This document shows, one piece after another, positions 51,548-64,000 of a stretch of 64,000 nt of DNA (positions are counted from its first letter, which is position 1; every line of letters starts with the position of its first letter). The notes below the pieces were generated by a model, which was not told where the DNA came from, did not search any database, and saw only the letters and a list, made by a program, of their open reading frames with translations. The stretch lies in assembly GCA_029067355.1 (NCBI GenBank), contig JAIEEQ010000011.1:2208-66207 (forward strand), in the 5' to 3' direction. Position numbers and translations under genes: made by a program. This DNA comes from Anaeroplasmataceae bacterium (GTDB lineage: Bacteria > Bacillota_I > Bacilli_A > Acholeplasmatales > Anaeroplasmataceae).

Positions 51548-52174
51548 ATGAAAAAAATATTAGACACGTTATTTCATCCTGCAAAAACAAAATGGTTTTG
51601 GGCATACATTGTTTTTGGCATTTTAGGAATATTCATTGGAATTGTACTTATGCCCGTGTGGACAAATGTAGAATGGGCACCATGGAAGACATGGGGATAT
51701 GATATTTTAAATATTATCATCTTTGTTTGTATTGTCTTGTATTTGTGCTTATTCTTAATTAAAAAGATATTAACAAGAACGAATGGTGTAATTAAGGTTT
51801 TAACTATATTAGAATTTGTTTTGTTAGCCTTAGTAGCTTTAGGATGTATTTTACAGCAATTCAAAGTTATTACCATTGCTAATGGTGCTTGTGCGATTGT
51901 AGGTCTTGCTTTGTGGTGCAGAGGAGCAGTAGAAATTTTTAGAGCATATTATCATCAAAGAGGAAATAATGATCGTTATCCAGTTTGGTGGTTAGCTGTT
52001 TCTATCGCTTTTGTTACACTTGGAGTTTATCTTATTGTTGCTCATCCAATTCCAGATGTTTACATTTTATGGACTTTTGTAATTTTGATTTTATTGGTTT
52101 CTATTATTTTAATTGTTGATGGTATCTTAGCAAAGCCAGCATCTAGAAAAACAAAGAAATCAAAAAGTAAGTAA
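51548..52174 (+). CDS. Integral membrane protein, unknown function
   Basis: About 6 TM helices and a basic C-terminal tail. Confidence 0.5.
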   Translation: MKKILDTLFHPAKTKWFWAYIVFGILGIFIGIVLMPVWTNVEWAPWKTWGYDILNIIIFVCIVLYLCLFLIKKILTRTNGVIKVLTILEFVLLALVALGCILQQFKVITIANGACAIVGLALWCRGAVEIFRAYYHQRGNNDRYPVWWLAVSIAFVTLGVYLIVAHPIPDVYILWTFVILILLVSIILIVDGILAKPASRKTKKSKSK

Positions 52175-52182
52175 TTTCAATG

Positions 52183-52211
52183 GCTCTATCTATTTGGATA
52201 GAGCTATTTTT
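52183..52211 (+). terminator. Intrinsic terminator
   Basis: GCTCTATC-TATTTG-GATAGAGC followed by TATTTTT. Confidence 0.65.
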
Positions 52212-52289: not shown

Positions 52290-53108
52290 ATGATTACAAT
52301 TCAAATTGCAAAAATAAATATAGGAGTAGATTTTCTGTTTGAGGATCAATTCTATAATATAGAATCCTTTCAGGTAGATGAGAAGGAGCAATATAGAATT
52401 AAGTCCTATTCTAAGGAATTTTCTATTCCTCAAGAAGAGCCGGATCGTAAAACGGAATTTTATGATATTTATGAAACGGATACCTCAGTTATACAAGTTC
52501 AGAAAAATAAAGGAGCTATTTTAGGGGCTATTGTTTATAAGGGAAATGAAATTGATTTATATTTGAAGAACGTTACTTTTGTAACAGAGTATTTATTGAG
52601 TCAATATGCGTTACTTTATATTCTAGGTCAAAAAAGTAATGCCCTATTTATTCATGGCTCTTCCATAGTGTATCAAGGAAAAGGAATTTTATTCTGCGCA
52701 AAAAGTGGCACAGGAAAAAGTACTCAAGCTAGCTTATGGAGAACTTTTACGGATGCAGTTTCTTTAAACGACGATAAGAACATTATTGTCTTTGAAGAAA
52801 ACTCCTTAAGACTATATTCAAATCCTTGGAGTGGTAAACATCAGATTCATCAAAACATTGTAGCCCCATTAACCTGTGTTGTATTTTTATCACAGGCAAG
52901 GAAGAATAGAGTAGACCGCCTTGAGGGAATGGAAACTATGCGTCTTTTGCTTGGACAAATTGAGCCACCTAAAAAAGCATCTGTGGAAAATTGGAATACC
53001 ATGGTAGATCAGGTACTAAAGCTACCTATGTATACCTATGGATGTAATATGAAGCCTGAGGCAGTAACCATATTAAAAGAGAGATTGGAGAGAGATTTAT
53101 GCCTTTAA
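52290..53108 (+). CDS. HPr-kinase-C-terminal-like P-loop protein (putative peptide kinase)
   Basis: HGSSIVYQGKGILFCAKSGTGKST resembles the HprK catalytic-domain P-loop context. First gene of an overlapping five-gene operon. Confidence 0.6.
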   Translation: MITIQIAKINIGVDFLFEDQFYNIESFQVDEKEQYRIKSYSKEFSIPQEEPDRKTEFYDIYETDTSVIQVQKNKGAILGAIVYKGNEIDLYLKNVTFVTEYLLSQYALLYILGQKSNALFIHGSSIVYQGKGILFCAKSGTGKSTQASLWRTFTDAVSLNDDKNIIVFEENSLRLYSNPWSGKHQIHQNIVAPLTCVVFLSQARKNRVDRLEGMETMRLLLGQIEPPKKASVENWNTMVDQVLKLPMYTYGCNMKPEAVTILKERLERDLCL

Positions 53109-53365
53109 ATGAGAATTTTATTTTAAAGAACGTTGGAAAGGAATATATGATTATTCCCTTATTAGATGGAGGAGTAGATTTTAGTAAGGTTTATAATGTT
53201 TCATCTACTGGAGCCTTTATTTACGAGCAACTTAAAAAGAATAAAACAGCAGAAGAAATTGCAGATCTTATGATAAAGGAATATGAGGTTTCCTATGAGG
53301 TTGTAAAACAGGATATTGATGACTTTATTAAAGAACTGAAAAGGCGCGGAATGTATAATGATTAA
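53099..53365 (+). CDS. PqqD-family protein (RiPP recognition element)
   Basis: 88 aa. The pattern ...YMIIPL...YNVSSTGAFIYEQL...TAEEIADLMIKEYEV..E.VKQDIDDFIKELKRRG is typical of PqqD/RRE proteins. Confidence 0.7.
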   Translation: MPLNENFILKNVGKEYMIIPLLDGGVDFSKVYNVSSTGAFIYEQLKKNKTAEEIADLMIKEYEVSYEVVKQDIDDFIKELKRRGMYND

Positions 53366-53774
53366 AATAGAGGAGTTCTATCCTTTAATTTTAGAGGCGT
53401 TTGAAAAAGGACAAACCTTTACCTTTCCCATTCGGGGGACAAGTATGCAACCATTACTTCATACCAATGATTTAGTTGTAGTAAAAGCAATTGAACAAGT
53501 AAAGAGGGGAGATATTATTCTTTATAGAAGAGAAAATGGACAGTTTGTTGTTCATCGGATTTTAAAGGTAGTAGGGGATTCTTTTACATTTGTTGGAGAT
53601 CATCAGACTCAGGTAGAAAAAGGGGTAAAGCTTAACCAATGTATTGGTAAGGTCATTGCCTATAAAAAGCAGGGAAAGGAGAAGCAGTATCTCTTAAAGG
53701 GGTTTCGGTATAGGTTTTATTGTAAACTGGTACGTATGAAATTGTTTCGAGGGATTTTTGCAAAGCTATTATGA
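53358..53774 (+). CDS. S24/S26-family serine peptidase (signal-peptidase-I/LexA-like fold)
   Basis: FPIRGTSMQPLL...DLVVVK...RGDIILY pattern. Confidence 0.6.
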   Translation: MIKIEEFYPLILEAFEKGQTFTFPIRGTSMQPLLHTNDLVVVKAIEQVKRGDIILYRRENGQFVVHRILKVVGDSFTFVGDHQTQVEKGVKLNQCIGKVIAYKKQGKEKQYLLKGFRYRFYCKLVRMKLFRGIFAKLL

Positions 53775-55360
53775 AGCCAAAGAAGAAATATTGTGTAATT
53801 TTATCTATTGTTGATTTCTTTTATTCCTGTTTTTTATTGATGGTTCCTGTTCTAACAAGCAATTTGGTAAATGAAGCAGTTGCGGCATCTAAGCTTAATC
53901 ATCCAGATCTGACACTTTTGATTTGGTATGGGATTGGAGTAATAGCTGCAATTTTTATGGATATCATATTATACCTACTTGAAGGAATTCTTTATTTTAG
54001 GTTTTCCATTGCTCGTGAAAAGGAAATTAAAGAAGACTTGTTTTATTGTATATTTGAAAAAGAATATGGACAGGTTGCAAGATTTCATACCGCTCAGATA
54101 GAACAGCTTTTTACAACAGATATCAGCAATATCATTCGTAACGAACTTGAAACCATTCCTGACTTTGTTCGTCAGACGACTCGGCTTTTATTAGCCATTG
54201 GGATTGTAGTTTACATTGATTTATGGTTTTTGGCTTTGATTCTATGCTGTGGAATTTTAGGTTTCATTTTTGCAAAGCTTTATTCTAAATGGATTAGACC
54301 ACATCATCATAGAGTGTTAGAGAGTGAAGGAATGTTTAATGGATACATTTTAGAATCCATTTCTCAAATGAAATTGATTCAGGCATATGATGCAAATCAG
54401 TATTCTAATGAGCATTTTGACCATTTGAATGCATCTCAAATTGAAGCAAAGAGAAAAAGAAATCGAATTCTTTTTTTTGCCAATGGGGGCTTATTTGCCT
54501 TTAGTAATATAATCTATTTATTTGCTTTATGCTATGGAGCTTATGGAATAGCAGTACAGCTTTTAACCTATGGTAGTATGATTGCGTTAGTTCAACTACT
54601 TAGTAATATCCAAAATCCTTTAATTTCATTTTCCTCCCTATGGAATCAGTACAATTTGGCAGTAGCCTCAAAAAAAAGAATTCAGTCTGTTTATGAGCTT
54701 TCTGACAAGGTAATTGAAGAAGGGATTCCTGACTTTGATTCTATTGTATTTGATAATGTAAGCTTTGCCTATCAGGACCATTCTGTAATCAAGGATTTTT
54801 CTTTTGAAATCAAAAAGGATGAAATTGTCTTATTTCAAGGACCTTCTGGCATTGGAAAAACAACAGTTTTTATGCTTCTTATGGGATTTTTAAAGCCAGA
54901 TAAAGGAAGAATTTATATAAAGTATAAAAAGAACATTTATCCTGTTACTAGAAATTTATTTAGCTATGTTCCTCAGGAAAATCTTTTGTTTAGTGGGAGC
55001 ATTGCAGAAAATATTTATATCTTAACTGGGAAAACAATAGAGGAAGCCACATGGGCGTTAAAGCAGGCTCATATTTATGATGAGCTTATGAAGCTTCCAG
55101 AGGGGATGAATACGATTTTAAAGGAGCGGGGGAGTGGATTATCCTTAGGACAGCTCCAAAGAATCTGGATTGCGATTGCATTACTTAAGGATCGTCCCAT
55201 TCTATTATTAGATGAATTTTCCAGTGCGTTAGATAAAGAAAATGAAGAAATTATAATGAGTAATTTAGCAAACCTCCAAAAGACTATTATCTTTATTTCT
55301 CATAGAACAAAGGAAATGGAGCGTCAGCGAGTTATCCTATTTCAGGAGGTGAATTCCTAA
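53771..55360 (+). CDS. ABC exporter (fused TMD-NBD)
   Basis: Six predicted TM helices, then GPSGIGKTT, LSLGQLQR and LLLDEFSSALD motifs. Confidence 0.85.
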   Translation: MKPKKKYCVILSIVDFFYSCFLLMVPVLTSNLVNEAVAASKLNHPDLTLLIWYGIGVIAAIFMDIILYLLEGILYFRFSIAREKEIKEDLFYCIFEKEYGQVARFHTAQIEQLFTTDISNIIRNELETIPDFVRQTTRLLLAIGIVVYIDLWFLALILCCGILGFIFAKLYSKWIRPHHHRVLESEGMFNGYILESISQMKLIQAYDANQYSNEHFDHLNASQIEAKRKRNRILFFANGGLFAFSNIIYLFALCYGAYGIAVQLLTYGSMIALVQLLSNIQNPLISFSSLWNQYNLAVASKKRIQSVYELSDKVIEEGIPDFDSIVFDNVSFAYQDHSVIKDFSFEIKKDEIVLFQGPSGIGKTTVFMLLMGFLKPDKGRIYIKYKKNIYPVTRNLFSYVPQENLLFSGSIAENIYILTGKTIEEATWALKQAHIYDELMKLPEGMNTILKERGSGLSLGQLQRIWIAIALLKDRPILLLDEFSSALDKENEEIIMSNLANLQKTIIFISHRTKEMERQRVILFQEVNS

Positions 55361-56454
55361 TGAATCATCCTATTCTTACAATGCTGAAAGCATATTTTAA
55401 AAAAGAAACCTTATCTATTGATATAGAGGAAGCTCAGCGATTGATTCCTTTGGCAAAGGAGCAATCTCTACAACCCTTTCTTTATGTGGTGTATCCAATA
55501 AAGGAATTTAAGAAATACTACATTTCGGCAGCTATTATGCAGGAGGATTTTTTAAAGCTTCAAAGAGAAATAACTCTTTTGTTTAATCAGGAGGAAATTC
55601 CGCATGTTTATTTTAAAGGTAGCGTGTTAAATGAAATTTATCCTGATTCAGCTCTCCGCACAAGAGGAGATATAGATGTTTATGTAGATAAAAAGAATTT
55701 TACAAAAGCAAAAAGTATTTTCATAAAGAATGGTTTTGAAATTTTACATATTGATTCACAGCATCACATTGAATTTATTAAAAACAATTTAATGGTTGAG
55801 CTTCATTTTGCTTTATTTGACATCGTTCGGAGCTCAGATTATTTTAAGGAACCCTTTTCTTTGTGTGAAAAGGTTGAGCAAAATTTATATGCCTTTACAG
55901 AAATTAATCATTTTATTTATTGCTTGCATCATTTTCAAAATCATCTTAGATTAGGTGCAGGAATTCGTTATTTGTTAGATTTTTACTATATGCTAAAGAC
56001 GTACCATCTAGATATGGATGTCTTGCATTCTAAAATTGATCAACTGGGATATAAAAGATTATATCAAAATATTATAAATTCTCTTTATGAATTAACAGAG
56101 GAAGAATTAGATAATGTCCCTAAAGAAAATGTGGATTTCTTTTTAGAATACCTGCTTAAATCAGGGATTCATGGATTTGGACAGGAAAGCAATCGTGATA
56201 ATAAAGGGTTTGCGATTAAAGATAATAAGCTTAAAGCTATACTGCTAGGAACATTTATGACTGAAAAATCCTATCGCATTGCGAAGTATCCAACCTTAGG
56301 TAAGCATTGGTTTACTTACCCTCTTTGCTTAATTCATCGTATTTTCTATTTGCTGTTTACCCAGACGGGAAAACTATTTAAGCTTCTGTTTTTTAAGAAA
56401 AATAAAATATCAAAAGAAGAAAAGGAACTAAGAAAAAATCTAGGAATAGATTAA
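55360..56454 (+). CDS. Nucleotidyltransferase-family protein ('uncharacterised nucleotidyltransferase' type)
   Basis: RTRGDIDVYVD motif (GDxD nucleotidyltransferase) followed by a helical C-terminal region. TAATG overlap with the ABC gene. Confidence 0.6.
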   Translation: MNHPILTMLKAYFKKETLSIDIEEAQRLIPLAKEQSLQPFLYVVYPIKEFKKYYISAAIMQEDFLKLQREITLLFNQEEIPHVYFKGSVLNEIYPDSALRTRGDIDVYVDKKNFTKAKSIFIKNGFEILHIDSQHHIEFIKNNLMVELHFALFDIVRSSDYFKEPFSLCEKVEQNLYAFTEINHFIYCLHHFQNHLRLGAGIRYLLDFYYMLKTYHLDMDVLHSKIDQLGYKRLYQNIINSLYELTEEELDNVPKENVDFFLEYLLKSGIHGFGQESNRDNKGFAIKDNKLKAILLGTFMTEKSYRIAKYPTLGKHWFTYPLCLIHRIFYLLFTQTGKLFKLLFFKKNKISKEEKELRKNLGID

Positions 56455-56753: not shown

Positions 56754-56782
56754 TTGACAAATGAATATGAGGGGGGTATAAT
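56754..56782 (+). promoter_or_regulatory. Consensus sigma-A promoter for the surface-protein module
   Basis: TTGACA, 17 nt, TATAAT. Confidence 0.6.
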
Positions 56783-56846: not shown

Positions 56847-58487
56847 ATGAAAAAAATTAAGGGTTTACTATTTGCTTTTGTAGCATTATTTGCATTTACA
56901 TTAGCAATGGTAAAGGTAAGTGCTGAGGTCGTATTCTCATATGATGCGGATTCAGACACTAACACAAGCTATGGAAAGAATGCGGCAGTATCTTTAATTA
57001 CAGGCTCTGACTTGGCTACGGTAAATACTGTACGTAGCTGTAATATTCAGGCTACGGGTGCTGGATCTGCTACTTTTGATACTGAAACATCATTTACTAG
57101 AGGAATGGTTCCTGGTGGAAACTGTGGTACAGCAGCTAATGCAGCTTTAAAGATTGTTTCTAAGGTTGCAGGTGTAAAAGTTGGTTATTATTATACAATT
57201 TCAGATTCTACTTTTGCTAGCTCACCTGAAGCAGTTAATGCAGGAAATGTTATTGTTATGAATAGCGCAGGGGAAACCTTAAAGTCTTATGATAATGTTG
57301 CAGGTAAAAATAATGAAGCATATTATTTAGAATATACAATTAATAGTGCAAATGAAACTATTTTAATTGGTTCACCAAAAAGAGTAATTACATTCGCTAT
57401 TGTTCTTTCACAGGGTGAGATTGCTCAAGAGCATACAGTAACTATTATGGATGGAACAACTCAATTAAGACAACAGAAGGTTGTTGCTGGCGAATCATTG
57501 GCATTCACTCCTTCAAAATATGGATTTGATTTTGCTGGATATTATACAGATGACTCTTTAGAAACTGCTTTTGATGGAGTAGTTACTAGTGATGTTACTA
57601 TTTATGTAAAATGGACTCCTTGGACAATTGCAATTAAGAGAAATCATCTTTCTCCAGAGTTAATTACTAAGGTTGCTGAAAGCTTTACTACATTTGATGC
57701 TAGCTTAGCTTTAGAAGGCACAATCTTTACAGTTATGAAGGGTAGTCAAACAGAAGCAAGCAGTAATTCTATTAAAACTGTTGGTGGTTTAACTCCAAAA
57801 ACAGAAGAAAAGGGTATTAAAATCGTTGCTCCTGAGGCAGGAACATTAACAGTAAGAACAATTGCAGGTGGATCTTCTGCACGTAATGCAAAATTAGTAA
57901 CTTATGATGGAACTAATACTAATGAGATTTCTGTAACTTCTGGAGATCCAGTATTTACTGATGGACAAGACAAGGGAGAGCCAAGAGTATTAACATATCG
58001 TATTGAAGCAGCTGGAACATACTATTTTGGTGGTTCTAATGGTTGTAAAGTATTTGAAATGAAATTCGTTGGCGATACTGAACCACAAGTAGATTTCTAT
58101 CAACAATCTGGATATAATGCAGCTGGAACAGAATTAGTAAGATATGTAACTATTCTTAAGAATGTTTCTGAAGCAGATGTTGCTAATTTCAGTTTAGTTA
58201 TTACTGGTGAAGGCTTAGGAGAGGGCTTTGATGTAACAAGTCATTGCAAGGTTGCAACTCGTATTACTAGCAATGGTGAAACTTATAAGGCCAATATCAA
58301 TGGTGCAGAATATGCTTTTGATGGTCATGATGGTGCAATATATTTAATTTGTGTTGTGGCTGTTTCTAATGATGGTGCAGCTTTAACAGACCAATATGTC
58401 GGAAAAGAATTGACTGCTACCTTTACTTGGGGAACAGATGCACCTGTTGTAAAAACATACACTGTTTTAGGTGCACAACAACAATAA
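56847..58487 (+). CDS. Secreted protein with one Listeria-Bacteroides (Flg_new/InlB B-type) repeat and beta-rich modules
   Basis: Signal peptide with a VSA|E cleavage site. HTVTIMDG...FDFAGYYTD...VTIYVKW matches the repeat consensus. Confidence 0.7.
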   Translation: MKKIKGLLFAFVALFAFTLAMVKVSAEVVFSYDADSDTNTSYGKNAAVSLITGSDLATVNTVRSCNIQATGAGSATFDTETSFTRGMVPGGNCGTAANAALKIVSKVAGVKVGYYYTISDSTFASSPEAVNAGNVIVMNSAGETLKSYDNVAGKNNEAYYLEYTINSANETILIGSPKRVITFAIVLSQGEIAQEHTVTIMDGTTQLRQQKVVAGESLAFTPSKYGFDFAGYYTDDSLETAFDGVVTSDVTIYVKWTPWTIAIKRNHLSPELITKVAESFTTFDASLALEGTIFTVMKGSQTEASSNSIKTVGGLTPKTEEKGIKIVAPEAGTLTVRTIAGGSSARNAKLVTYDGTNTNEISVTSGDPVFTDGQDKGEPRVLTYRIEAAGTYYFGGSNGCKVFEMKFVGDTEPQVDFYQQSGYNAAGTELVRYVTILKNVSEADVANFSLVITGEGLGEGFDVTSHCKVATRITSNGETYKANINGAEYAFDGHDGAIYLICVVAVSNDGAALTDQYVGKELTATFTWGTDAPVVKTYTVLGAQQQ

Positions 58488-58503
58488 TAAGGAGATTATT
58501 AAA

Positions 58504-58644
58504 ATGAAAAAAATTTACGAAAAACCAATATTAGAAGTAGAAAATGTACAAATTGAAGATGTTTGTGCTGTTAGCGTAAATGCTGATGAAGGTGTTAGTC
58601 TTCCTACACCATCAAGCAATGTTACTCGTTGGGGTAGAAAATAG
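58504..58644 (+). CDS. 46-aa ORF, candidate leader-containing peptide: MKKIYEKPILEVENVQIEDVCAVSVNADEGVSLPTPSSNVTRWGRK
   Basis: Hand-translated; absent from the ORF track because it is under 60 aa. AAGGAG (58489-58494) lies 9 nt before the ATG. YEKPIL matches the YxxPxL leader motif. Confidence 0.5.
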   Translation: MKKIYEKPILEVENVQIEDVCAVSVNADEGVSLPTPSSNVTRWGRK

Positions 58645-58658
58645 TTAATAGAAGCTGT

Positions 58659-58676
58659 GGGGTGCTTAAGGCACCC
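58659..58676 (+). other. GC-rich stem-loop immediately after the small ORF
   Basis: GGGTGC-TTAAG-GCACCC with no strong T tail. Possible attenuator or processing site. Confidence 0.3.
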
Positions 58677-58697
58677 TACATTTCATACGGGAAGAAA

Positions 58698-58913
58698 ATG
58701 AAGAAAATTATAGGATTTGCTTTATTTTTAATTATGGTATTATGCTCTTGTAGTCATGCATCAGTTGATTCTTCGTTAGATGAGGGAGATGAATCGGAGA
58801 TTGTACAACCAGATGCTAAAGATGAAGAGAATAAGAAAGATGATGACAAGCAAGACGAGGGTACTGAAGACAAAGTTTATGATGATGATGTTGAGTGGGG
58901 GCCTTTGTCATAA
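58698..58913 (+). CDS. Small, highly acidic lipoprotein (71 aa)
   Basis: MKKIIGFALFLIMVLCSC lipobox. The mature part is dominated by D/E. Confidence 0.5.
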   Translation: MKKIIGFALFLIMVLCSCSHASVDSSLDEGDESEIVQPDAKDEENKKDDDKQDEGTEDKVYDDDVEWGPLS

Positions 58914-58931: not shown

Positions 58932-61900
58932 ATGAAACTTAAAAAGATAATTATTGGACTTTTTATGATTTCAGCTGTAATTGGTTTGGCAGCTTGTAAA
59001 ACAGATGATGATCCAAACCAAAATATTCCACCAGAAGAAGATGTTTTAAAGTACACAGTTACTTTTGATACAGATGGTGGTAGCGCAATTGCAGTTCAAA
59101 ATGTAGAAAGAGGACAAACAATCAGCAATCCAGATACTCCTGTAAAAGCAGGTTATGAATTTAAGGGATGGTATAAGGATAAAGCTTGCAATTATATATG
59201 GGATTTTGAAGAAGATATTGTTACAGGAAATGTAACCTTATATGCGAAATGGGAAGCAAAGGTAATATATACAGTTATCTTTGATTCTAAAGAGGGTAGC
59301 CCAGTTGATTCACAGCAGGTGAAGTATAACGAGAAGGCACAAAGACCAATCAGTCCAACAAGAGAGGGCTATATCTTTGCAGGCTGGTTTACAGAGAGTG
59401 CATGTATTTATGAATTTGATTTTGTGAATACAGAAATAACAAAGGATATCACCTTATATGCGAAATGGGTAGAAAGATCAACAGATCCAACCAAGGTAAA
59501 GGTACTCTTTAACTCAAAAGGTGGTAGTTTGGTACCTGATTTAACAGATGTAGAGATTGGTTCAAAGATTAGCAAGCCAGCAGATCCAGTAAGAGAAGGG
59601 TATACCTTTGTTGGCTGGTTTAAGGATGAGGATGGTCCTTTAACAGGTAAGTTTAACTTTGAAGAAGAAGTGATTACTGAGGGTATCACATTATTTGCAA
59701 GATGGGATATCAATATGTATACCATAACTTTTGACTCAAATAATGGTAGCAGTGTAGAATCTCAATCTGTTGGATATAAGCATAAGGCACAAAGACCAGT
59801 AAGCCCAACAAGAGAAGGCTATATTTTTGCAGGTTGGTTTACAGAATCCTCATTTATTCATGAATTTGACTTTGTGAATACAGAAATAACAAATAGTATT
59901 ACCTTATATGCAAAATGGGTAGAAAGATCAACAGATCCAACCAAGGTAAAGGTACTCTTTAACTCAAAAGGTGGTAGTTTAGTACCTGATTTAACAGATG
60001 TAGAGATTGGTTCAAAGATTAGTAAGCCAACAGATCCAGTAAGAGAAGGATATACCTTCCTTGGCTGGTTTAAGGATGAGGATGGTCCTTTAACAGGTAA
60101 GTTTAACTTTGAAGAAGAAGTGATTACTGAAGGAATTACTTTATATGCTAGATGGGAAATCAATATATATACAGTAACCTTTAATTCAAATAATGGTAGC
60201 AGTGTAGAATCACAAAAAGTACAATATGATCATGTAGCCTCTAGACCAGTAAGTCCAACAAGAGAAGGCTATATTTTTGCAGGCTGGTTTACAGAGGCTG
60301 CTGGTATTCATGAATTTGACTTTGTGAATACAAAAATTACAGGAAATATTACCTTATATGCAAAATGGACACCAAATTCATCTACTTCTGATGTGTTCAC
60401 AGTAACCTTTAATTCAAAAGATGGTAGTTATGTTCCAGCTATTGAAAATATTTTACCAGGTTCAAAGATTCAAAGACCAACGGATCCAATAAGAGAGGGA
60501 TATAGATTCTTAGGCTGGTTTAAGGATGAAAATGGTCCATTGAGAGATGAATTTAATTTTGATGAAGAAGTAATTACTGAAAATATAATCTTATATGCTA
60601 GATGGGAAGTTTCTGAATATAAAGTTACATTCAGTGGAACAACTTTAGCTCCACAGATTGTACCTGTTGGAGGAAAGATTACAAAGCCTAGCCCTGATCC
60701 AGTTAAAGCAAATCATATTTTTGTTGGCTGGTATGAGGATGCAGCATTTACAAGAATTTGGGATTTTGATACAGTATTAACAAGCTCTATAACACTTTAT
60801 GCAAAGTTTGAAGAAAAGCTTCCAACAGATCAGGATAATACAATTAAATTCCCATTCAATTCTTTCCATACTACGGCACAGGCAAATTTAGATTCTAGTA
60901 CAGGTAAGACAAATAAAGACTTAACCACAGGTCAATTCACTGTTGATGCTGGAGTTAAAACGGAAGCAGCGATTTTAAATACGCAGGGTAAGGGAGTAAC
61001 ATTTACAGTAAATGGTACAATTAGTAATGGATTTGTATTGACTGGTACAGGTGCCTCTACTGGTAAGGTAGTTACTGTAACGCTATACCAAGGAACTAAT
61101 ATTTTAGGCACATGGGAGATTGGCTATCAGGCTACTAAAACAATTACAGTAGATGGTTTAGATGCTGGCTCTTATAAAATTACAACTTCTGGCTCTGTTA
61201 GAATTACAAACTTTACATTATATGAATACAATGTTCCAGTAGAGCTAGTTGTTCATTTCGATTCAAAGAATGGAACTCGTGTTCCAGATGTTGTTGTAAA
61301 TAAGTGGGGTAAGCTAACTGCACCTACTGCTCCAACTAAAGATGGTTATATCTTTGCTGGATGGTATATAGATGATAGCCTTCAAACAGCATTTGATTTC
61401 AATACTAAGATTTTAGAAGAAATGACCTTATATGCAAAATGGGACGAAAAACCTGTGGATCCTAATTTGACGATTTATACAATATCCTATAATCCACATG
61501 GTGGAAATGATATTCCAGATAAGCAGGTTAATGAAGGCAACAAGGTTGCTGCACCTGAAAATCCAGTAAGAGAAGGATATACTTTTGTTGGCTGGTATGA
61601 GGAAGATAGCTATATTAACCTTCATGATTTCACCAAGCCTGTAAATCAAAACTATACTTTACATGCAAGATGGGTTGAAAAGCCATTAGTTATTAGCTTT
61701 GTAGGAGCAGATATTGAAGACATGCAAGTTTATCGTAATAATACGATTGAAGAACCTGCTACTCCACAAAGACCAAATTATATTTTTGAAGGCTGGTATG
61801 AAGATGAGGCCTTTACAAAGAGATTTGATTTCTCTATTCCTTTGACAAAGGATACGACCATTTATGTTAGATGGGAAAAGGATCCTGATGCATCTGATTA

Positions 61901-64000
61901 TATTGAGGGTGGTCAAGGAACAGTAGGCCAAAAGGGTACCGTAGAAATTACAGAGGCAATGGGCTTATCTGAGGCTGCTTATATTACCTTTAAGAAGGTA
62001 ACAGGGGCTACTGGATATTCCATTACATTAAAGAATTCAAGCAACGCAATTCGTGTTCTTGATGATAATAGCGTTTATATTCGTGAAGTAAATGGTGGCA
62101 TGCGTGCTGATATCTTTGGCGTTGTTCCAGGGACTTATGAGGCAACCATTCTTCCATTGAATACTTCAAGTGCAAATCCATCAACTGCTACATTTAATGT
62201 TGGTGCGTATGATCGTTCTGGCTATGCACACTTTAACTATACAGATGGTGTTGGTGCGTATAATGATGATGGATCATTAAAGAAAAATGCAATTGTACTT
62301 TATGTAACAGATGCAAATAAAAATACTGTTTCCATTACACATAAGGGTATTACGGTTACTGGTATTGGTAATATCTTAAACTCTGTTGGTGAAGATGTTG
62401 GTGGCGGAGTTACTGCAAAGGGTGGAAAAGCAAATACAAATCAAGGAATCTTGAAGCTTCTTGCTGAGGATAATATTCCTCTTGTAGTAAGATTTATTGG
62501 TTGTGTATCTAATACAGGCTTATATAAGCAAGGTACCTTTGCTGCTTCAACTGCTCCAAAGGTTGAGGGCTTAACAATTTATAACTCTTTAGACAATGGT
62601 GGATCTGTGGGCGACAATGGACATATGGCTCGTATGAAGTCTGGAAAGAACATTACTCTTGAAGGTGTTGGAGAGGATGCAATTGTTGATGGCTGGGGCT
62701 TCCATTTTATGGCTGAAAGCTCAGCTCCAGATCTTGGAAAGAATTTTGAAGTAAGAAATCTAACCTTTATTAATACACCTGAGGATGCCGTTGGTATGGA
62801 GGGTGTACAGTCTACGGCTAATACTAGTGCTATAATTACAGCAAGTGTTGAAAGATGCTGGGTTCATAATTGTGAATTCTATTGTCCAAGCATTTCTAGC
62901 CCTGCTGAATCTGATAAGGCTCAGGGTGATGGTTCTGTGGACTTCAAGAGAGGTCAGTACTTTACATGTAGCTATAACTACTATGAGGGATGCCATAAGA
63001 CAAATCTTGTTGGCTCAGCTGATAGTTCATTACAATTTAATTTAACATATCATCATAATTATTATAAGAATTGTGAGTCAAGAGGACCACTTTCTCGTAA
63101 TGCAAATATTCATATGTATAATAATGTATTTGAGGGACAATCCTCTTATGCAATGGATGCAAGAGCAACTGCCTTCATCTTCTCTGAATACAATTTATTC
63201 TATTGCTGTAAATCACCTCAAACAAATGCAAGTGGTGGTGTTATTAAGAGTTATAACGATTGCTTCTCTAGTGTAATCAATGATCAGTTAGGTGTTATTG
63301 TTACAGATAAGACACAAAACGTATCTAACTCTTGTCAATATATTGCAGGTGGCATTGATTATTCTAAGTTTGAAACAAATCCAAACCAGTCTTACATTCC
63401 TTCTGGGGATTATGTTCTTCAAACTAATATGACTGACGTTAGAAAAGCATGTGCAGCGAGATGTGGTGTTGTAAAAGATCATGGTGTTGCAATGCAGGAT
63501 GTACCTATGTCTCAAATATCATATCTTCCTAGTGGTGTTACTCCTACAAAGGTTACAAGCTATCCAACAACCTTAACTCCAGGTAAGATTAGCAAGGTAG
63601 TTTATGCATTTACGTTAGATCGTACCACAGAAGTAACAGTTTCCTATACAGGTGAAGGTGTTTTAGTAAATGAGGCTGGAGAAAAATTCATTGATGGTAA
63701 TGGAACAGCTATCTTAAAGCCAGGAACCTATATGTGTCAATCTGTTAACTTTAACCCAGATAAGGGTAGTGGTTTATCCTTCAAGGATTTAACAATCAAC
63801 TCAATAGAAATTAAAGAACATAATTCAGAAGAATTAAATCAACAGATTATTGCTGAATTTGAAGCTAAGGTTGCAAAGATTCCAGCAGAAATTGTTTATA
63901 CAGATTCTTGCTTAGCATCAATCACTTCAGCAAGAGAGGCTTATAATCAATTAAGTCCTGAATTAAAGACAAGAGTAACTGCATCTTACACTAAGATTCA
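58932..64000 (+). CDS. Giant surface lipoprotein, 3' end outside window: 11 Listeria-Bacteroides repeats, beta-sandwich modules and a PL1-like pectate lyase domain
   Basis: Hand-translated and open from the ATG at 58932 wherever I checked (58932-59460 and 62703-63180 read codon by codon). LAAC lipobox. Repeated (Y/F)T(V/I)TF(D/N)S..G....REGY.F.GW......F.F.....(I/V)TLYA(K/R)W units. Lyase motifs GDGSVDFKRG, HKTNLVGSADS and LTYHHNYYKNCESRGPLSRNANIHMYNN. Confidence 0.85.
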   Translation, partial: MKLKKIIIGLFMISAVIGLAACKTDDDPNQNIPPEEDVLKYTVTFDTDGGSAIAVQNVERGQTISNPDTPVKAGYEFKGWYKDKACNYIWDFEEDIVTGNVTLYAKWEAKVIYTVIFDSKEGSPVDSQQVKYNEKAQRPISPTREGYIFAGWFTESACIYEFDFVNTEITKDITLYAKWVERSTDPTKVKVLFNSKGGSLVPDLTDVEIGSKISKPADPVREGYTFVGWFKDEDGPLTGKFNFEEEVITEGITLFARWDINMYTITFDSNNGSSVESQSVGYKHKAQRPVSPTREGYIFAGWFTESSFIHEFDFVNTEITNSITLYAKWVERSTDPTKVKVLFNSKGGSLVPDLTDVEIGSKISKPTDPVREGYTFLGWFKDEDGPLTGKFNFEEEVITEGITLYARWEINIYTVTFNSNNGSSVESQKVQYDHVASRPVSPTREGYIFAGWFTEAAGIHEFDFVNTKITGNITLYAKWTPNSSTSDVFTVTFNSKDGSYVPAIENILPGSKIQRPTDPIREGYRFLGWFKDENGPLRDEFNFDEEVITENIILYARWEVSEYKVTFSGTTLAPQIVPVGGKITKPSPDPVKANHIFVGWYEDAAFTRIWDFDTVLTSSITLYAKFEEKLPTDQDNTIKFPFNSFHTTAQANLDSSTGKTNKDLTTGQFTVDAGVKTEAAILNTQGKGVTFTVNGTISNGFVLTGTGASTGKVVTVTLYQGTNILGTWEIGYQATKTITVDGLDAGSYKITTSGSVRITNFTLYEYNVPVELVVHFDSKNGTRVPDVVVNKWGKLTAPTAPTKDGYIFAGWYIDDSLQTAFDFNTKILEEMTLYAKWDEKPVDPNLTIYTISYNPHGGNDIPDKQVNEGNKVAAPENPVREGYTFVGWYEEDSYINLHDFTKPVNQNYTLHARWVEKPLVISFVGADIEDMQVYRNNTIEEPATPQRPNYIFEGWYEDEAFTKRFDFSIPLTKDTTIYVRWEKDPDASDYIEGGQGTVGQKGTVEITEAMGLSEAAYITFKKVTGATGYSITLKNSSNAIRVLDDNSVYIREVNGGMRADIFGVVPGTYEATILPLNTSSANPSTATFNVGAYDRSGYAHFNYTDGVGAYNDDGSLKKNAIVLYVTDANKNTVSITHKGITVTGIGNILNSVGEDVGGGVTAKGGKANTNQGILKLLAEDNIPLVVRFIGCVSNTGLYKQGTFAASTAPKVEGLTIYNSLDNGGSVGDNGHMARMKSGKNITLEGVGEDAIVDGWGFHFMAESSAPDLGKNFEVRNLTFINTPEDAVGMEGVQSTANTSAIITASVERCWVHNCEFYCPSISSPAESDKAQGDGSVDFKRGQYFTCSYNYYEGCHKTNLVGSADSSLQFNLTYHHNYYKNCESRGPLSRNANIHMYNNVFEGQSSYAMDARATAFIFSEYNLFYCCKSPQTNASGGVIKSYNDCFSSVINDQLGVIVTDKTQNVSNSCQYIAGGIDYSKFETNPNQSYIPSGDYVLQTNMTDVRKACAARCGVVKDHGVAMQDVPMSQISYLPSGVTPTKVTSYPTTLTPGKISKVVYAFTLDRTTEVTVSYTGEGVLVNEAGEKFIDGNGTAILKPGTYMCQSVNFNPDKGSGLSFKDLTINSIEIKEHNSEELNQQIIAEFEAKVAKIPAEIVYTDSCLASITSAREAYNQLSPELKTRVTASYTKI
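59268..60617 (+). repeat. Three tandem 450-bp coding repeat units (each two Flg_new repeats) inside the giant ORF
   Basis: AAATGGGTAGAAAGATCAACAGATCC recurs at 59463 and 59913, exactly 450 bp apart. 59463-59720 versus 59913-60170 differ at about 14 positions by eye. Confidence 0.85.

Follow-up and report, generated by a model that had tools for sequence, protein, structure and literature searches.

In a 64,000-nt stretch of DNA from an Anaeroplasmataceae bacterium (GenBank assembly GCA_029067355.1, contig JAIEEQ010000011.1; hereafter the window), a 46-codon open reading frame (ORF) at 58504-58644 probably encodes, by analogy with Paenibacillus alginolyticus, an LppA-type precursor for a linear polyphosphorylated peptide (LPP) pathway encoded at 52290-56454. 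The ORF is a real, conserved gene, and comparison of related loci indicates that its peptide is very probably the substrate of that upstream operon, a cassette of an HprK-like kinase, a PqqD-type RRE (recognition element of RiPPs, peptides made by ribosomes and modified after translation), a signal-peptidase homologue, an ATP-binding cassette (ABC) exporter and a nucleotidyltransferase.

The probable precursor gene and its leader family

The gene consists of the following features:

58489-58494, + strand: Shine-Dalgarno sequence AAGGAG, 9 nt 5′ of the ATG at 58504
58504-58644, + strand: precursor ORF, 46 codons (46 amino acids), ATG at 58504-58506, TAG ending at 58644
Within the precursor: conserved leader from residue 1 to about 21-24 (Y5-x-x-P8-x-L10), conserved Ser24, variable middle, and an RWGRK C-terminus conserved in the clade

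The ORF translates to MKKIYEKPILEVENVQIEDVCAVSVNADEGVSLPTPSSNVTRWGRK, where residues 5-10 read Y-E-K-P-I-L. An initial annotation of this DNA had pointed out the ATG, the AAGGAG 9 nt upstream, the 46-residue translation and a hairpin after the gene, and we confirmed all of these statements; the PqqD ORF at 53099-53365 and its neighboring genes were also as described there. AAGGAG is found at the same spacing ahead of the homologous genes in loci L001-L009. Five homologues of the peptide in metagenome assemblies, 76-100% identical to it, have MKK(I)YEKPILEEEKVQIEDICAVS in common, after which the middle varies and the RWGR(K) end is conserved. Compared with locus L003, the leader codons (1-24) carry five synonymous changes and one non-synonymous change, and the tail codons carry four and ten, respectively, indicating that the leader is under purifying selection as a protein and that the tail is diversifying. 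RiPP precursors usually show this combination. One further protein, P0001, from a 2.7-kb Logan contig, is a 65-residue version of the peptide in which the TAG stop is read through (…WGRK-Q-LIEAVGCLRHPTFHTGRK), which could be a single-nucleotide polymorphism or a gene-calling artefact.

Using a profile of the kinase, we fetched 80 genome loci with 10-kb flanks, which came from Clostridia, Erysipelotrichia (Kandleria, Solobacterium), Acholeplasmatales and even one Prevotella. The kinase-PqqD-S24-ABC(-NTP5) cassette was present in most of them by tblastn, and the 546-residue secreted protein encoded just upstream of the peptide gene was confined to close Anaeroplasmataceae relatives. A motif scan and then a leader hidden Markov model (HMM) were run over the 42,203 small ORFs of the fetched loci, and about 50 ORFs scored at E < 0.02, with the remainder at E > 1. 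Leader-family ORFs were found in 29 of the 80 loci, nearly all on the kinase strand and typically a few hundred nucleotides from it, and at some loci they form tandem arrays of up to six. In distant loci without the 546-residue surface protein, from Clostridia, Erysipelotrichia and Acholeplasmatales, the same leader family accompanies the same cassette, and this recurrence supports assigning the peptide to the operon. When the look-ups began with the peptide instead, a ScmC-like kinase and a PqqD gene adjoined the peptide gene in five of six contexts. The proposal of the initial annotation that the peptide is the precursor for the RRE operon is supported by this linkage in both directions, and its suggested check of whether the peptide travels with the modification genes or with the surface-protein genes came out in favor of the cassette.

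The family extends well beyond these loci. A profile search with the peptide returned at least 151 clusters, none carrying a name or a Pfam domain, and an exhaustive HMMER search of 1.84 billion representatives, with a limit of E ≤ 0.001, found 3,410 peptides. Neither Pfam nor NCBIfam has a model for the family, and a search of the PDB with its profile gave spurious designed-repeat matches only. Anchored on the Tyr, the family logo reads M-x-K-Y-x-K/T-P-x-h-E-V/I-V/I-E-F/L-x-x-E-D/E-V/I-I-T/A-T/A-S, with a consensus of M-x-K-Y-x-x-P-x-h-E-V-V-E-F-x-x-E-D-V-I-T-T-S followed by a hypervariable tail (median length, 24 residues; median net charge, -3), and the window peptide fits the logo without gaps.

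Several variations on this arrangement were observed. All subfamily B1 peptides (P0171-P0238) end in Ser and have no Ser at Tyr+19, and the terminal Ser resembles that of paeninodin-type precursors phosphorylated on a C-terminal Ser; subfamily B2 peptides (P0128-P0240) share a TVY[DN]LT...TS tail. Three Acholeplasmatales loci (L092 8001-11073, L011 125-3260 and L010 8702-11786) carry kinase, PqqD, peptidase and ABC genes without an NTP_transf_5 gene; no precursor was seen within the flanks of L092 and L011, and in L010 the precursor lies directly 5′ of the kinase. In L100 (7197-9880) and L058 (9800-12209), the leader family, a ScmC-like kinase and PqqD occur with a radical S-adenosylmethionine (SAM) enzyme and Cys-containing cores, which looks like a mix-and-match RiPP variant. 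Finally, L094 (5428-8297) and L037 (66-3223) have four to six tandem precursor genes beside a divergent response-regulator/HATPase_c_5 sensor-kinase pair, with a LytTR-type regulator further along L094, suggesting quorum-sensing-like control.

The enzyme cassette and a proposed pathway

The cassette consists of five overlapping or abutting genes on the + strand, in the order kinase-RRE-peptidase-exporter-nucleotidyltransferase (K-B-S-D-N):

52290-53108, + strand: HprK-like peptide kinase (LppK equivalent), PF27840 ScmC in the precomputed Pfam annotation
53099-53365, + strand: discrete PqqD-type RRE (LppB equivalent), PF05402, 3e-14
53358-53774, + strand: archaeal/SipW-type signal peptidase I homologue without a transmembrane segment (LppS equivalent), 138 amino acids, S24/S26
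53771-55360, + strand: MsbA-like ABC exporter (LppD equivalent), without a C39 peptidase domain
55360-56454, + strand: NTP_transf_5 nucleotidyltransferase (LppN/PsmN-type), PF14907, 3.6e-33, with a G-S...D-I-D motif

LPPs were first described in 2026, from Bacilli, in P. alginolyticus DSM5050, where the operon is lppA-K-B-S-D-N (Popov et al., Nat Commun 2026;17:6633; PMC13381572). According to that study, the products of LPP clusters are LppS, an archaeal-type signal peptidase resembling SipW, with S29/H68/D93 as catalytic residues; LppB, a discrete RRE; LppK, an HprK-like kinase; LppN, an NTP transferase; and LppD, an MsbA-like pump. The precursors follow the consensus YxxPxVLxHQxIxFETxxS (PMC13381572). 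LppK adds one to four phosphates to core Ser3, and LppS requires LppB, cuts after Thr(-1) and acts poorly on a precursor that is not phosphorylated; in a heterologous host, LppN was silent (PMC13381572). The clusters often lie within capsule loci, and a [Y/W]xxP RRE-binding motif is common to LPP and lasso leaders (PMC13381572). The reading of the leader as lasso-type YxxPxL in the initial annotation was right in this shared sense, and the description of the operon as an orphan was not supported, as the operon corresponds to this pathway.

The individual enzymes agree with these assignments. The kinase, 100% identical to a protein of an NCBI metagenome-assembled genome, has the invariant residues H122, G140-T-G-K-S-T145, N160 and D162, and keeps the H...G-x-G-K-S...D-D motif of lasso and LPP kinases (PMC10368454); its AlphaFold model has a confidence (pLDDT) of 92, and its best fold matches in the PDB are HPr kinase/phosphatase. 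The closest solved relatives of the RRE are TbiB1, LppB (9x8z) and TfuB1. The peptidase, whose gene starts at 53358 and overlaps the end of the PqqD gene at 53365, has sigpep_I_arch (archaeal-type signal peptidase I) as its best NCBIfam match, at 1.7e-11. S29, H66 and E87 are invariant over 15 family members and Lys70 is not conserved, which makes this a peptidase of the Ser-His type rather than the LexA-like Ser-Lys type; a classical Ser-Lys S24 mechanism was rejected on the same residues.

For direct comparison, LppS, LppB and the sequences of the sequence similarity network (SSN) clusters were taken from Supplementary Data 1 of PMC13381572. Between the window peptidase and LppS the identity is 28% (E 2e-14), with S29/S29, H66/H68 and E87/D93 aligned, and the RRE is 31% identical to LppB (E 3e-9). 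In pairwise comparisons, the RRE matches LppB (E 3e-9 / 4e-8; 9x8z) better than the paeninodin-type PbaB1 (3e-5; 9x90), and its best matches overall are the RREs of the uncharacterised SSN clusters #4 and #9. Peptidase and RRE together are nearest to cluster #9 (Ruminococcus, 42% identity) and cluster #4 (Dehalobacter, Anaerocolumna), for which the supplementary table lists an RRE and gives the precursor as 'ND' (PMC13381572).

On the model of the P. alginolyticus system, from which binding, phosphosite, cleavage site and export are all inferred, the PqqD-type RRE would bind the leader through Y5-x-x-P8-x-L10 as an added beta-strand, and the kinase, guided by the RRE, would put one or more phosphates on the conserved Ser24. 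The cytoplasmic signal-peptidase-I homologue (Ser29/His66/Glu87) would then take off the leader of the substrate presented by the RRE. That the S26-type peptidase serves as leader peptidase, as the initial annotation proposed, seems right in principle, and this putative role is drawn by analogy with LppS. The cut probably falls between residues 21 and 24, and our best guesses are between Cys21 and Ala22 or between Ala22 and Val23. Keeping the Ser at core position 3 would place it at Cys21-Ala22, and the S26-type preference for a small residue at -1 and an aliphatic one at -3 would favor Ala22-Val23 and also allow Ser24-Val25; family-wide, the site equivalent to Ala22-Val23 has T/A at -1 and V/I/N at -3. 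Cleavage after V-N-A, between Ala27 and Asp28, had been proposed instead and was not borne out, as VNA is VDV in P0004 and TSV in L009, and as such a cut would discard Ser24, which is conserved family-wide and is the counterpart of LppA's phosphorylated Ser3. A linear phosphopeptide of about 22-25 residues ending in RWGRK would result. The NTP_transf_5 enzyme may further decorate the phosphate, as PsmN does with a hexose; phospho-pseudomycoidin needs PsmN to receive its hexose (PMC6993621). Lacking a signal peptide, the peptide needs an ABC exporter, and the MsbA-like pump would export the product.

Companion genes and alternative readings

The surroundings of the precursor gene and the cassette, in a window with a GC content of 34%, include the following features:

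52179-52208: terminator between a DUF308 gene and the kinase gene
56754-56782, + strand: perfect match to the sigma-70-type promoter consensus (TTGACA-17-TATAAT), 5′ of the secreted-protein/precursor bicistron
56847-58487, + strand: 546-residue secreted protein; signal peptide present, List_Bact_rpt match weak
58651-58684, + strand: stable hairpin GGGGTGC...GCACCC after the precursor stop, folding energy -20.9 kcal/mol, z = -4.9
58698-58913, + strand: small acidic lipoprotein gene, directly 3′ of the precursor gene

The stop of the 546-residue gene sits 16 nt before the precursor ATG, and the pairing is not peculiar to the window. In about 18 loci that span three leader subfamilies, the precursor gene is preceded, at a distance of 14-60 nt, by the end of a gene whose product has a signal peptide. 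Examples of secreted protein and precursor are:

Window 56847-58487 with 58504-58644
L010 6174-8616
L027 3122-9063
L041 5197-7521
L047 437-3708
L079 6916-9158
L096 7003-8162
L098 7134-8186

These companions are homologous, in their C-terminal domains, only within a subfamily, and Pfam has no match for those domains. Subfamily B has its secreted-protein gene within the cassette, whose genes run PqqD-S24-ABC-secreted protein-precursor-kinase-SLH protein (S-layer homology). The surface-protein gene had been taken as an unrelated interruption between operon and peptide, a view that is not supported, as such a gene precedes the precursor in many distant loci. The recurrent linkage of the precursor to genes of secreted or surface proteins suggests a connection with the cell envelope, which agrees with the capsule-locus association of LPPs.

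A small lipoprotein or membrane-anchored gene also adjoins the precursor in the window (58698-58913) and in L016 (9492-9740), L027 (9188-9694), L047 (5380-5919) and L064 (1200-1838). It follows the precursor in most of these loci and precedes it in L047, and it could encode an immunity or binding protein. Beyond it, a giant lipoprotein gene of more than 1,689 codons with many Listeria-Bacteroides-type repeats occupies 58932-64000 and runs off the window. Its C-terminal part is putatively pectate-lyase-like by reading of the sequence only, and long internal DNA repeats in the gene produce nearly identical antisense ORFs at 59408-59725 and 59858-60163. On the other side, a DUF308 membrane-protein gene lies immediately 5′ of the cassette in the window (51548-52174), L001 (2629-3297) and L009 (9229-9831), a position conserved among Anaeroplasmataceae relatives.

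For the hairpin at 58651-58684, none of 200 shuffled sequences folded equally well. There is no U-tract 3′ of its stem and the terminator scan made no call there, and on these grounds an intrinsic terminator is not supported; attenuation or stabilisation of the mRNA is a possible role. The Anaeroplasmataceae loci L001, L003 and L009 have a counterpart of this hairpin after their homologous gene, and distant loci do not.

The 16-nt junction and the strong promoter could also mean that the peptide belongs to the secreted-protein/lipoprotein unit, as a partner, ligand or regulator of the 546-residue protein, and that its YxxPxL is incidental. The signal-peptide genes 14-60 nt ahead in other loci fit this reading, and so does one peptide-first context, L101, that has no cassette within 9 kb. 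However, the tandem-precursor loci L037/L094, L057 and L083 have no secreted-protein gene and keep NTP_transf_5 together with the kinase and the S24/S26-type peptidase (L094 also has an annotated PqqD gene), and the cassette is homologous across subfamilies where the secreted proteins are not. The conserved leader and variable tail are the pattern of a RiPP precursor, and the peptide, having no signal peptide, needs the ABC exporter. We hold this reading, in which the peptide is no substrate of the cassette, to be unlikely, and membership in the surface unit is compatible with the peptide being such a substrate. That the ORF is a chance, untranslated frame in an intergenic region is barely credible: it is short and has no name or family in any database searched, but it has a strong Shine-Dalgarno sequence, relatives keep its length and frame, its leader shows far more synonymous than non-synonymous changes (against L003), and the profile search matched thousands of representative peptides at E ≤ 0.001.

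Another alternative is a true lasso precursor, with a core A22...D28/E29, a 7- or 8-membered ring, and a cyclase and B2 protease encoded elsewhere in the genome. By the lasso spacing rule, which puts the Tyr at -17 (PMC10368454), Y5 would make Ala22 the first core residue and place Asp and Glu at core positions 7 and 8, a D7/E8 pattern that is kept in close relatives. Val(-2) in place of Thr is tolerated in some lasso leaders (PMC10368454), and the closest solved relatives of the RRE include lasso B1 proteins. Against this, no ORF with an Asn-synthetase-like PP-loop was found in the 64-kb window, nor in about 100 related loci (1.35 Mb), where the only three ORFs with SGGxDS are MnmA-like proteins of about 360 amino acids. 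No B2-type protease gene is among the five cassette genes, in a search limited to 52290-56454; all five ORFs matched other families, and the signal-peptidase-I-type peptidase fills the leader-peptidase role. The cassettes are compact, without room for a cyclase of about 600 residues or a B2 protease, and the wider family has Thr or Ala at the would-be position 1, with tails that are too short or have no acidic residue at positions 7-9. The paeninodin leader matches positions 1-11 of the family HMM only. A lasso product is highly improbable on this evidence, and we rejected it on the missing cyclase and B2 protease in the cassette and the missing PP-loop ORF in the window and the related loci.

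Several observations also weigh against an LppA-type precursor. The identity of peptidase and RRE to LppS and LppB is only 28-31%, and both lie nearer to uncharacterised branches; the family leader HMM gives LppA no score. The spacing from the Tyr to the conserved Ser is 19 here and 18 in LppA, and neither the F-E-T(-1) cleavage motif nor the H-Q element of the LPP consensus is present. In 51 of the 80 cassette loci, no family peptide was found in the 10-kb flanks, and an iterated leader HMM added none in these loci. The window gene is 2 kb away from the cassette, on its downstream side and with a strong promoter of its own ahead, whereas the precursor is kinase-adjacent in most loci. Subfamily B has Leu or Pro at the position of the conserved Ser, so the phosphosite may differ between branches.

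Relation to known systems

Two further RiPP types were considered and rejected. For a tryglysin-type WGK RaS-RiPP (WgkA/B/C; a radical SAM RiPP), the PqqD protein matched WgkC at 27.9 bits, below the cut-off of 110, and the cassette has no radical SAM gene; we take the resemblance of the RWGRK ending to the WGK motif as coincidental. For a SynChlorMet cassette, the matches to ScmC (24.6 bits, cut-off 125) and ScmD (21 bits, cut-off 100) are a remote resemblance only. More distant ScmC-like kinases do adjoin radical SAM genes, and we judged these to be a different system.

The phosphorylated lasso peptides of the paeninodin, pseudomycoidin and Bsf type (PadeK, PsmK/PsmN, BsfK/BsfB1) have in common with the window the YxxPxL leader motif, a PqqD-type RRE, an HprK-like kinase (theirs acts on the leader-bearing precursor), an NTP_transf_5-type enzyme and an ABC exporter. 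BsfK of the Bsf system phosphorylates core Ser3 in an RRE-dependent manner. Unlike these systems, the cassette has no Asn-synthetase-like cyclase and no transglutaminase-like B2 protease, its leader peptidase is a serine signal-peptidase homologue, and its product is expected to be linear. With signal peptidases I of the SipW/archaeal-ER type (S26B), that peptidase shares the G-x-S-M-x-P nucleophile box, the H-R box and the G-D box, but it lacks the N-terminal membrane anchor, its gene accompanies that of an RRE, and its putative substrate carries no signal peptide. Cytoplasmic RiPP leader-peptidase activity of a SipW-like homologue has been shown for LppS only (PMC13381572).

The locus extends the LPP pathway to the wall-less-related gut Anaeroplasmataceae, supplies candidate precursors for the signal peptidase I/RRE branches listed as 'ND' in the discovery paper, and shows the precursor family to be very large in gut and rumen Firmicutes. 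The pairing of precursor, secreted protein and small lipoprotein is a testable handle on function, in the cell envelope or in signaling, and for annotation the lesson is that the key gene of an operon that would otherwise be an 'orphan' is an ORF of 46 codons, below the length cut-off. More tentatively, gut Clostridia and Anaeroplasmataceae may hold a far larger LPP-like sub-class of RiPPs, whose precursors are co-transcribed with secreted or surface proteins and whose phosphopeptide is their partner or signal; we consider this possible but doubtful. It rests on about 3,400 precursor clusters (50% identity) with their own leader grammar, Y-x-x-P-x-h-E-V-V-E-F-x-x-E-D-V-I-T-T-S, and on mixed-and-matched enzyme sets, radical SAM variants included. 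If it is true, the exported phosphopeptide could be a ligand, anchor or quorum signal, and LytTR two-component genes flank the tandem precursor arrays.

The closest parallel is the LPP system of P. alginolyticus, which has the same five enzyme families in the same K-B-S-D-N order. Neither system has a cyclase, both precursors have an N-terminal YxxPx[V/L], a conserved Ser and a variable C-terminus, and the loci of both are associated with the cell envelope. They differ in the leader beyond YxxPxL, which is …E-D-V-I/C-T/A-x-S here and …F-E-T-x-x-S in LppA, in the core, which is about 22-25 residues here and 45 residues there, and in the place of the precursor gene, which lies 2 kb downstream of the lppN-like gene and behind a secreted-protein gene in the window, whereas lppA is upstream of the kinase gene. 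The hosts differ as well, an Anaeroplasmataceae metagenome-assembled genome here and a member of Bacilli there, and the main text of PMC13381572 makes no mention of Clostridia, Mollicutes, gut or secreted proteins. Taken together, the system is very probably a new, divergent member of the LPP kind described in 2026, representing a minor gut-bacterial branch.

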